A stretch of 64,000 nucleotides of DNA from Escherichia coli (GTDB taxonomy: Bacteria > Pseudomonadota > Gammaproteobacteria > Enterobacterales > Enterobacteriaceae), in NCBI RefSeq assembly GCF_016903815.1, contig NZ_CP069973.1; one strand, written 5' to 3'. Made by a program: the position numbers and the translations under genes. This document shows, piece after piece, positions 44,722 through 46,873 of the stretch. Positions within the stretch are counted from its first letter, which is position 1. The number at the start of each line of letters is the position of its first letter. The notes under the pieces were generated by a model. That model was not told the DNA's origin, did no database searches, and was given only the letters and a program-made list of their open reading frames with translations.

Positions 44722-46873
44722 ATGGCATTAACCGCCGCGCTTAAAGCGCAAATTGCCGCCTGGTATAAGGCGCTTCAGGAACAGATCCCCGACTTTATTC
44801 CCCGTGCGCCGCAGCGGCAGATGATTGCGGACGTCGCCAAAACGCTGGCCGGAGAAGAAGGGCGGCATCTGGCGATTGAAGCCCCCACCGGCGTTGGGAA
44901 AACGCTCTCCTATTTGATCCCCGGCATCGCCATTGCCCGCGAAGAGCAAAAAACGCTGGTGGTGAGTACCGCCAACGTGGCATTGCAGGATCAGATCTAC
45001 AGTAAAGATTTACCGCTGCTGAAAAAGATCATTCCCGATCTTAAATTCACTGCCGCTTTTGGGCGTGGGCGCTACGTTTGCCCGCGTAATCTGACGGCGC
45101 TTGCCAGCACTGAGCCCACGCAACAGGATCTGCTGGCGTTTCTTGACGACGAGCTGACGCCGAACAATCAGGAAGAGCAAAAACGTTGTGCGAAGCTGAA
45201 GGGCGATCTCGACACTTATAAATGGGATGGTCTGCGCGATCATACTGATATCGCTATAGATGACGATCTCTGGCGTCGTTTAAGTACCGACAAAGCCAGC
45301 TGCCTCAACCGCAACTGTTACTACTATCGTGAATGCCCGTTTTTTGTTGCTCGTCGGGAGATTCAGGAAGCGGAAGTGGTGGTGGCAAACCATGCGCTGG
45401 TGATGGCGGCGATGGAAAGCGAAGCCGTATTGCCTGACCCGAAAAATTTACTGCTGGTGCTGGACGAAGGCCATCACCTGCCGGATGTGGCGCGGGATGC
45501 GCTGGAGATGAGTGCCGAAATCACCGCGCCCTGGTATCGACTACAGCTGGACTTGTTCACGAAACTGGTCGCTACCTGCATGGAGCAGTTTCGCCCGAAG
45601 ACCATCCCGCCGCTGGCGATCCCTGAACGTTTGAATGCGCATTGTGAAGAGTTGTATGAGCTTATCGCCACGTTAAACAACATTCTCAATCTCTACATGC
45701 CTGCCGGGCAAGAGGCAGAGCACCGTTTTGCGATGGGCGAACTGCCAGATGAAGTGCTGGAGATCTGCCAGCGGCTGGCAAAACTCACCGAGATGCTGCG
45801 TGGGCCTGGCTGAGTTATTTCTTAACGATTTAAGTGAGAAAACCGGCAGCCATGACATTGTACGTCTGCATCGGTTGATTTTGCAGATGAATCGCGCGCT
45901 GGGGATGTTCGAGGCGCAAAGCAAACTCTGGCGGCTGGCGTCTCTGGCGCAATCTTCCGGTGCGCCGGTGACTAAATGGGCGACGCGGGAAGAGCGCGAA
46001 GGGCAGCTGCATCTCTGGTTTCACTGTGTGGGTATTCGTGTCAGCGATCAGCTGGAAAGGCTGCTGTGGCGCAGTATTCCGCACATTATTGTCACCTCCG
46101 CAACCTTGCGTTCGCTGAATAGTTTTTCGCGTTTGCAGGAGATGAGTGGGCTGAAAGAGAAAGCGGGCGACCGTTTTGTGGCGCTGGATTCCCCCTTTAA
46201 CCACTGCGAACAGGGCAAAATTGTTATTCCCCGGATGCGCTTTGAGCCTTCCATCGACAACGAAGAGCAGCATATTGCCGAAATGGCGGCCTTTTTCCGT
46301 GAGCAGGTGGAGAGCAAAAAACATCTCGGTATGTTGGTACTGTTTGCCAGCGGACGGGCGATGCAGCGCTTTCTTGACTATGTGACGGATTTACGCCTGA
46401 TGTTGCTGGTGCAGGGCGATCAGCCACGTTATCGCTTAGTTGAACTGCACCGCAAACGCGTTGCCAACGGTGAGCGTAGCGTGCTGGTGGGCTTACAGTC
46501 CTTTGCCGAAGGTCTTGATCTGAAAGGCGATCTGCTCAGCCAGGTGCATATCCACAAAATCGCTTTTCCGCCCATCGACAGCCCGGTGGTGATCACCGAA
46601 GGGGAATGGCTGAAAAGCCTCAACCGCTATCCGTTTGAGGTGCAAAGCCTGCCGAGCGCTTCGTTTAACCTGATTCAGCAGGTTGGGCGACTGATTCGAA
46701 GCCACGGTTGCTGGGGGGAAGTGGTTATCTACGACAAACGCTTGCTGACCAAAAATTATGGCAAGCGACTACTGGATGCATTACCGGTATTTCCGATAGA
46801 GCAACCGGAAGTCCCTGAAGGTATAGTTAAAAAGAAAGAAAAAACGAAATCCCCACGCCGTCGGCGGCGTTAA
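44722..46873 (+). pseudogene. dinG: ATP-dependent DNA helicase DinG, reading frame interrupted by single-base insertion (or sequencing error)
   Basis: Two consecutive ORFs (44722..45813 and 45728..46873) together cover full-length DinG; frame breaks at GGG run 45802-45804 (EMLRG|PG* vs downstream LAELFLNDLSEK); span is 2152 nt, not a multiple of 3. Confidence 0.75.

Follow-up and report, generated by a model that had tools for sequence, protein, structure and literature searches.

The dinG gene in the chromosome segment analysed here very probably carries a genuine +1 frameshift that inactivates the DNA helicase DinG and that has been inherited within the Escherichia coli clone ST405 (O102:H6, FimH27), and not an assembly error. 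The segment, hereafter the window, is a 64-kb stretch of the E. coli chromosome reaching from galM to ybiR, in which dinG and its surroundings match strain 7/2 (NZ_CP023820.1) without a single difference over 8,155 bp. The features of the locus are listed in Table 1.

Table 1. Features of the dinG-ybiB locus, with positions counted from the first nucleotide of the window.
Feature	Position	Strand	Remarks
SOS (LexA) operator of dinG, TATTGGCTGTTTATACAGTA	44688..44707	+	Exact match, upstream of the start codon, intact
dinG, frameshifted pseudogene	44722..46873	+	2152 bp (wild type 2151 bp); RefSeq label and NF008729 score
N-terminal ORF, 363 codons plus stop	44722..45813	+	361 native residues, then Pro-Gly
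GGG run with a single extra G (wild type GG)	45802..45804	+	Alignments against K-12, EE72d, 50579417 and others
Premature TGA arising from the frameshift	45811..45813	+	T at 45811 is a lineage SNP (G in K-12)
Rest of dinG, native residues 362-716, motor domain 2	45806..46873	+	+1 frame
ybiB, intact	46901..47863	+	WP_001522664.1 in carriers and non-carriers

The dinG lesion and its protein product

A first-pass annotation of the window had described the dinG frame as broken by one extra G in a G-run, with 363 codons leading up to a TGA and the remainder of the gene in the +1 frame, and both parts of this description hold. Where K-12 reads CGT-GGC-CTG-GCG, the window aligns with CGTGGGCCTGGCT, which contains one G more (GGG for the GG that is also seen in near relatives). 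This extra G is the sole difference in length between the window dinG and K-12 dinG, which share 97.6% nucleotide identity. The translation of the N-terminal ORF closes with ...EMLRGPG directly ahead of the TGA, and only two residues of the 363-aa product, P362 and G363, are non-native. The native frame is picked up again at CTG 45806. In the +1 frame, an ORF at 45728..46873 reads ...VGLAELFLNDLSEK... through to the native DinG C-terminus, the DinG remainder running from ...LAELFLNDLSEK... to ...SPRRRRR. Removal of one G in silico indeed yielded the continuous 716-aa helicase that the first-pass annotation had anticipated: the ORF contained no internal stops, and its product matched the intact DinG of strain EE72d, WP_001522662.1, with 100% identity. 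The repaired protein differs from K-12 DinG at three residues. Synonymous changes account for 48 of the 51 codons that differ, which is the pattern expected of a gene that was under purifying selection until recently.

The GGG run is adjoined by a Dcm motif, CCTGG, at 45805-45809. The T at 45811 represents a lineage-specific synonymous SNP (GCT, compared to GCG in K-12) that makes the TGA immediate; on a K-12 background, the identical insertion would read on to a TAA six codons further.

The K-12 counterpart (b0799; PDB 6FWR/6FWS) is an XPD-family SF2 Fe-S 5'-3' DNA helicase. Both genomes share the same locus, rhlE...dinG-ybiB-hcxB, and the same SOS box, so that the box, the dinG-ybiB pair and the upstream rhlE are syntenic with K-12. 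The interval between rhlE and dinG (43830-44551) is occupied by a two-gene toxin-antitoxin module on the + strand, whereas K-12 has ybiA there on the - strand; the antitoxin (146 aa) is assigned to the PaaA2 family in one record, and the toxin (93 aa) belongs to the RelE/ParE family, with a start overlapping the antitoxin stop. Unlike K-12 DinG, the window product ends at residue 363, and motifs I-II and the Fe-S domain are thereby cut off from motor domain 2.

Assignment to DinG was based on the NCBIfam equivalog NF008729 and its curated cut-off of 598 bits. The repaired (or intact) sequence gave a full-length match of 1053.2 bits. The N-terminal ORF matched profile positions 2-367 with 523.8 bits, and the C-terminal part matched positions 369-702 with 511.8 bits, each below the cut-off. 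The N-terminal ORF keeps the Walker A motif GVGKT (57), motif II DEGH (248) and the Fe-S cysteines C120, C194, C199 and C205, and its Pfam matches were DEAD_2, DEAD and ResIII only. The domain Helicase_C_2, which corresponds to motor domain 2, was found only in the +1-frame remainder (E = 2.3e-35). With the N-terminal ORF stopping where it does, the two motor domains are not present on one polypeptide, in contrast to the repaired protein, which matches PDB 6FWR over residues 1-716.

Structural work on DinG has revealed that the Fe-S and arch domains are insertions in motor domain 1, that the ATP site lies between the two motor domains, both of which are needed for binding of ATP and ssDNA, and that motor domain 2 contacts 7 of the 10-11 bound nucleotides (PMC6300356; PMC11981726). 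The 363-aa product is missing motor domain 2 altogether, along with the C-terminal portion of motor domain 1 and some of the arch. Carriers of the lesion are therefore expected to have lost helicase activity and ATPase-coupled translocation. In the course of events that we propose, a G was inserted into the GG of dinG codon 361, most likely by replication slippage, and translation would stop 2-3 codons past the insertion. In the resulting 363-residue product, the inter-domain ATP site could not form and the ssDNA could not be bound at its 5' part, so that the helicase activity would be lost.

Deletion of dinG causes no severe phenotype but minor sensitivity to UV and H2O2. Alongside Rep and UvrD, DinG has been implicated in removing R-loops and in allowing replication to pass through heavily transcribed regions (PMC11981726). 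Tolerance of the lesion in a successful clone is explained by dinG being non-essential and its null phenotypes being mild.

The extra G in other genomes

The first-pass annotation had offered two readings of the extra G, an inactivating mutation or a homopolymer sequencing error, and had called for a comparison with closely related genomes. This comparison decided the matter in favour of mutation, as the same allele is present in 51 independently sequenced complete genomes; the reading as a homopolymer error did not stand. The dinG frameshift is a genuine inherited mutation, and neither a mutational hotspot nor a basecalling artefact. An 81-bp stretch across the site, identical to that of the window, was found in 51 of 5,426 complete E. 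coli genomes, and dinG in all of these carriers was 100% identical over 2,155 bp. The carriers originate from Sweden, China, Japan, Norway, Pakistan, Burkina Faso, Canada, the USA, Germany and Taiwan, and were isolated from people, a wild bird, surface water and estuaries. The extra G was reproduced in independent isolates and on different combinations of platforms: the genome of carrier KY1497 is a PacBio RSII assembly corrected with Illumina reads (PMC7035895), and that of carrier WCHEC96200 was assembled from Illumina and MinION reads (PMC5762679). The exact 363-aa truncated product was also encountered on at least 1,000 contigs (NCBI, ENA, UniRef, Logan). In each carrier inspected (7/2, WCHEC96200, KY1497, NMBU-W10C18, PEC1013 and Ec-U14-1), RefSeq lists dinG as a 'frameshifted' pseudogene.

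Relative to K-12 and to 42 near-identical intact alleles, the frame is disrupted by one inserted G. The intact ST405 strains 50579417, DA33137, YDC107 and EE72d, all of which encode WP_001522662.1, have the same dinG DNA apart from this base (and one more synonymous SNP in EE72d). They display GG, an uninterrupted 716-aa ORF and a neighbourhood that is identical over about 40 kb.

A sequencing or assembly artefact, i.e., a basecalling error at the homopolymer or the Dcm motif that added a false G to an intact gene, has in our estimate a negligible probability. A short G run beside a CCTGG Dcm motif is a context in which long-read basecallers are prone to error, and 1-bp indels restricted to a single genome do exist nearby, for example in fiu, which is frameshifted only in WP7-S18-ESBL-09. 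Such an error, however, is hard to reconcile with an allele that recurs in complete genomes produced by many laboratories on various platforms, some of them hybrid or Illumina-corrected PacBio assemblies, with Logan and ENA assemblies among the contigs encoding the exact truncated protein, with the limitation of the allele to one clone, or with sister ST405 genomes that were obtained by the same sequencing approaches and lack the extra G. As a basecalling control, we placed the extra G in the K-12-like form of the 81-mer and searched for the result, a control that covers this exact background only; it had 0 matches among the 5,426 complete genomes, even though the local context is common to most of the remaining ~5,330 genomes. 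The absence of the extra G from the K-12-like background argues against both a hotspot and a basecalling artefact.

The lesion in fiu, which encodes a siderophore receptor, is a private 1-bp deletion at the equivalent of window position 51703 and is annotated as 'frameshifted'. WP7-S18-ESBL-09 is a non-carrier of the dinG allele, and its fiu deletion is unsupported by other genomes and may be real or an assembly error.

The dinG lesion is an ordinary inherited frameshift pseudogene, already flagged in public annotation. It is alike to the 'frameshifted' pseudogenes that PGAP reports in clonal pathogens, being a single-base indel in a short homopolymer of a non-essential gene in a recently expanded clone. 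Nothing material distinguishes it from these, and it concerns one gene and not genome-wide decay.

Residual function and expression of the operon

We regard it as highly improbable that the gene still works. It could do so if ribosomes shifted by +1 at GGG-C, if translation restarted at GTG 45800 or at an ATG further downstream, or if the two fragments joined to form an active split helicase. The distances involved are short: the stop follows 2-3 codons past the insertion, a +1 slip within GGG-CCU-GGC would produce a nearly native protein, and the GTG of the downstream frame is located 11 nt ahead of the stop. The codon GGG is rarely used, and tRNA-Gly could pair anew with GGC. The situation resembles the +1 frameshifting of prfB in that a +1 shift is needed and an in-frame UGA is positioned just past the shift site. 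In contrast to prfB, the window possesses neither a CUU-U-type slippery codon at the stop nor a Shine-Dalgarno-like stimulator, and the arrangement is not conserved among orthologues but restricted to one sub-population of a single clone. By inspection, the site reads CUG CGU GGG CCU GGC UGA G without an AGGGGG-like element, a strong and well-spaced Shine-Dalgarno-like element is missing, and GGC cannot re-pair on GCU. Moreover, the 51 occurrences of the frameshift among the 5,426 E. coli genomes belong to one clone, and its absence from the ~5,375 others indicates that it is not a conserved recoding signal.

Reinitiation fares similarly. The candidate restart codons lack ribosome-binding sites, as no good Shine-Dalgarno sequence was seen by inspection at the in-frame starts GTG 45800 and ATG 45749, 45887 and 45905. 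Scanning positions 44500-48100 for consensus promoters and terminators produced no hits beyond those expected from shuffled sequence, and revealed no internal promoter from which the C-terminal half could be transcribed. Regarding a split helicase, the break falls inside the arch domain, itself in motor domain 1, and a split protein must therefore rebuild a single folded domain. None of the 51 carriers has a second lesion in dinG, as might be expected of a gene that is still in use; however, the lack of secondary lesions is uninformative in a young clone with ~1 SNP per 25-40 kb per strain. Loss of the helicase thus remains the preferred reading, to which low-level read-through, restart or fragment complementation could add some remaining function.

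The operator TATTGGCTGTTTATACAGTA is the LexA site of the dinG promoter. Because the promoter, the LexA box and the start region are intact, the mRNA of the broken dinG is probably still made and induced by the SOS response. The start of ybiB is located 28 nt past the dinG stop, and the two genes form an operon under LexA control (PMC10123104). With about 1,060 nt untranslated ahead of ybiB, its SOS-induced expression may be lowered by (Rho-dependent) polarity.

Distribution within ST405 and number of origins

At a threshold of at least 99% identity, this dinG allele is present in 94 complete genomes, which are divided into the 51 frameshifted ones, 41 that are identical but have GG, EE72d and AR_0067. 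The dinG gene of EE72d has GG and one synonymous SNP at 45985; that of AR_0067 shares both features and additionally carries a 12-bp in-frame deletion of independent origin. The 41 otherwise identical GG alleles, together with EE72d being one synonymous SNP away, indicate that GG is ancestral.

AR_0067 (NZ_CP032261.1) was considered as a frame-restoring suppressor and rejected, as the alignment shows that the extra G was never present. Its dinG (2139 bp) is annotated as encoding an intact 712-aa DinG, WP_119163982.1. The deletion, CTCTGGCGGCTG, is equivalent to window 45926-45937, lies between short CTGGCG repeats and results in the loss of LWRL 402-405.

Two carriers have been typed in the literature, WCHEC96200 as ST405 (PMC5762679) and KY1497 as ST405, O102:H6 (PMC7035895). 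In addition, assembly accessions were looked up in Table S4 of a study of 1,778 ST405 genomes (PMC13098264). All 13 typed carriers were ST405 (13/13) and were distributed over BAPS cluster BC2, the FimH27 part of BC3 and part of BC6, and the carriers with serotype and fimH data were without exception O102:H6 FimH27 (10/10). The 11 typed non-carriers belonged to BC5, other BC6, or the FimH29 part of BC3/BC4. Mapping the carriers of Table S4 to one BAPS cluster or resistome subgroup was attempted and abandoned: the allele is confined to ST405, yet it matches no single published cluster or subgroup. The same 2026 population genomics study never mentions dinG, pseudogenes or frameshifts (PMC13098264), and searching the literature for earlier reports of such a lesion in this clone turned up no relevant paper.

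A single origin by descent is by far the simplest reading of this distribution, considering that the same one-base event in a 2-nt run is found in no other lineage and in an otherwise invariant gene. On this reading, the insertion has been passed down inside the pandemic multidrug-resistant clone ST405, in which the loss of dinG is tolerated. For a linked-SNP analysis, the window was aligned with five carriers and five non-carriers over 39-42 kb. Among these 10 strains, no SNP co-segregated with the extra G, and every SNP was private to one strain. The upstream 24.7 kb likewise provided no marker, with carriers and non-carriers alike being 100% identical. The lack of a separating SNP across the 64-kb window is explained by the clone being too young, with private SNPs only, at about 1 per 25-40 kb per strain. 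In line with this low diversity of the window, 38-39 core SNVs were reported between KY1497 and its nearest relatives (PMC7035895). Over about 40 kb, the 10 strains showed only 11 private SNPs or indels, and at least 38 genomes among the matches listed are identical to the window over the 24.7 kb.

The sole shared polymorphism was a 711-bp IS200C element just past the ompX terminator; genomes with and without it exist both among the carriers of the frameshift and among the non-carriers. The element was rejected as a phylogenetic marker, because IS200C is found at this exact position in 81 complete E. coli genomes, unrelated lineages included, and the site is thus an insertion hotspot. In the window, the site (~62429) is empty and directly follows the ompX terminator hairpin AAAAAATCCGCCTCTCGGGGCGGATTTTT. 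The element is present there in the carriers PEC1013, 222, 103, FDAARGOS_1279, 1579 and JMK_KBN3987, plus many ST405 non-carriers. A further IS200C copy, 99.4% identical to that of the ompX site, is located in the window at 31681-32391 (tnpA 31826-32284), flanked by ybhL on one side and, on the other, by an ORF of 129 aa (32554-32943) that is annotated as 'Bax inhibitor 1 family' and resembles a 5'-truncated ybhM; this arrangement was seen in all ST405 genomes inspected.

Could the GG/GGG site instead have mutated recurrently or reversibly in ST405, with dinG being turned off, or on again, repeatedly under selection? We consider this very unlikely, even though several observations would fit. 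Carriers fall into three BAPS clusters, no linked SNP marks them, and the only linked polymorphism, IS200C, is paired with the frameshift in all four possible ways. In the rows of Table S4, carriers are interleaved with groups of non-carriers in what looks like tree-leaf order, and if it is tree order, the interleaving would need reversion, recombination or recurrence. The row order of that table is undocumented, however, and its authors state that BAPS clusters and tree partly disagree (PMC13098264). The conflict with IS200C is uninformative given the hotspot, and recombination inside the clone could likewise spread or erase the allele. Both the on and the off state are found within ST405 and across BAPS clusters, with no linked informative SNPs to place the carriers. 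The tract itself, which occurs as GG or GGG only, speaks against a switch. Phase-variable homopolymer tracts typically comprise 7 nt or more, and a run of 2-3 nt is much too short for classical phase variation. Furthermore, the identical event is found nowhere else among the 5,426 genomes, and selection for loss should give varied inactivating lesions and not one. Taken jointly, reversion, within-clone recombination and recurrence are, in our judgement, a very improbable alternative to single descent.

We deem it very unlikely that the loss of DinG is adaptive and possibly reversible, with GG/GGG switched more than once or recombined across FimH27 O102:H6 sub-populations. These sub-populations include the expanding blaNDM-5 reservoir. 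If it were so, plasmid carriage, mutability or stress tolerance would change once the cell is deprived of an SOS helicase that resolves R-loops and conflicts between replication and transcription.

Under the preferred reading of an inherited inactivating frameshift, annotation pipelines are correct in calling dinG a pseudogene here, and re-sequencing of the site is unnecessary. DinG is lost in a large share of a global high-risk clone (51 of the 94 complete genomes with this allele), and the ST405 strains with a broken dinG include NDM-5-carrying isolates from people, wild birds and surface water. The lesion is of modest value in two respects. It provides a cheap typing marker for ST405 sub-populations, and its carriers represent natural dinG mutants in a clinical background, which could be used to probe possible roles of DinG and SOS-induced YbiB in plasmid maintenance, R-loop tolerance and antibiotic-induced mutagenesis.
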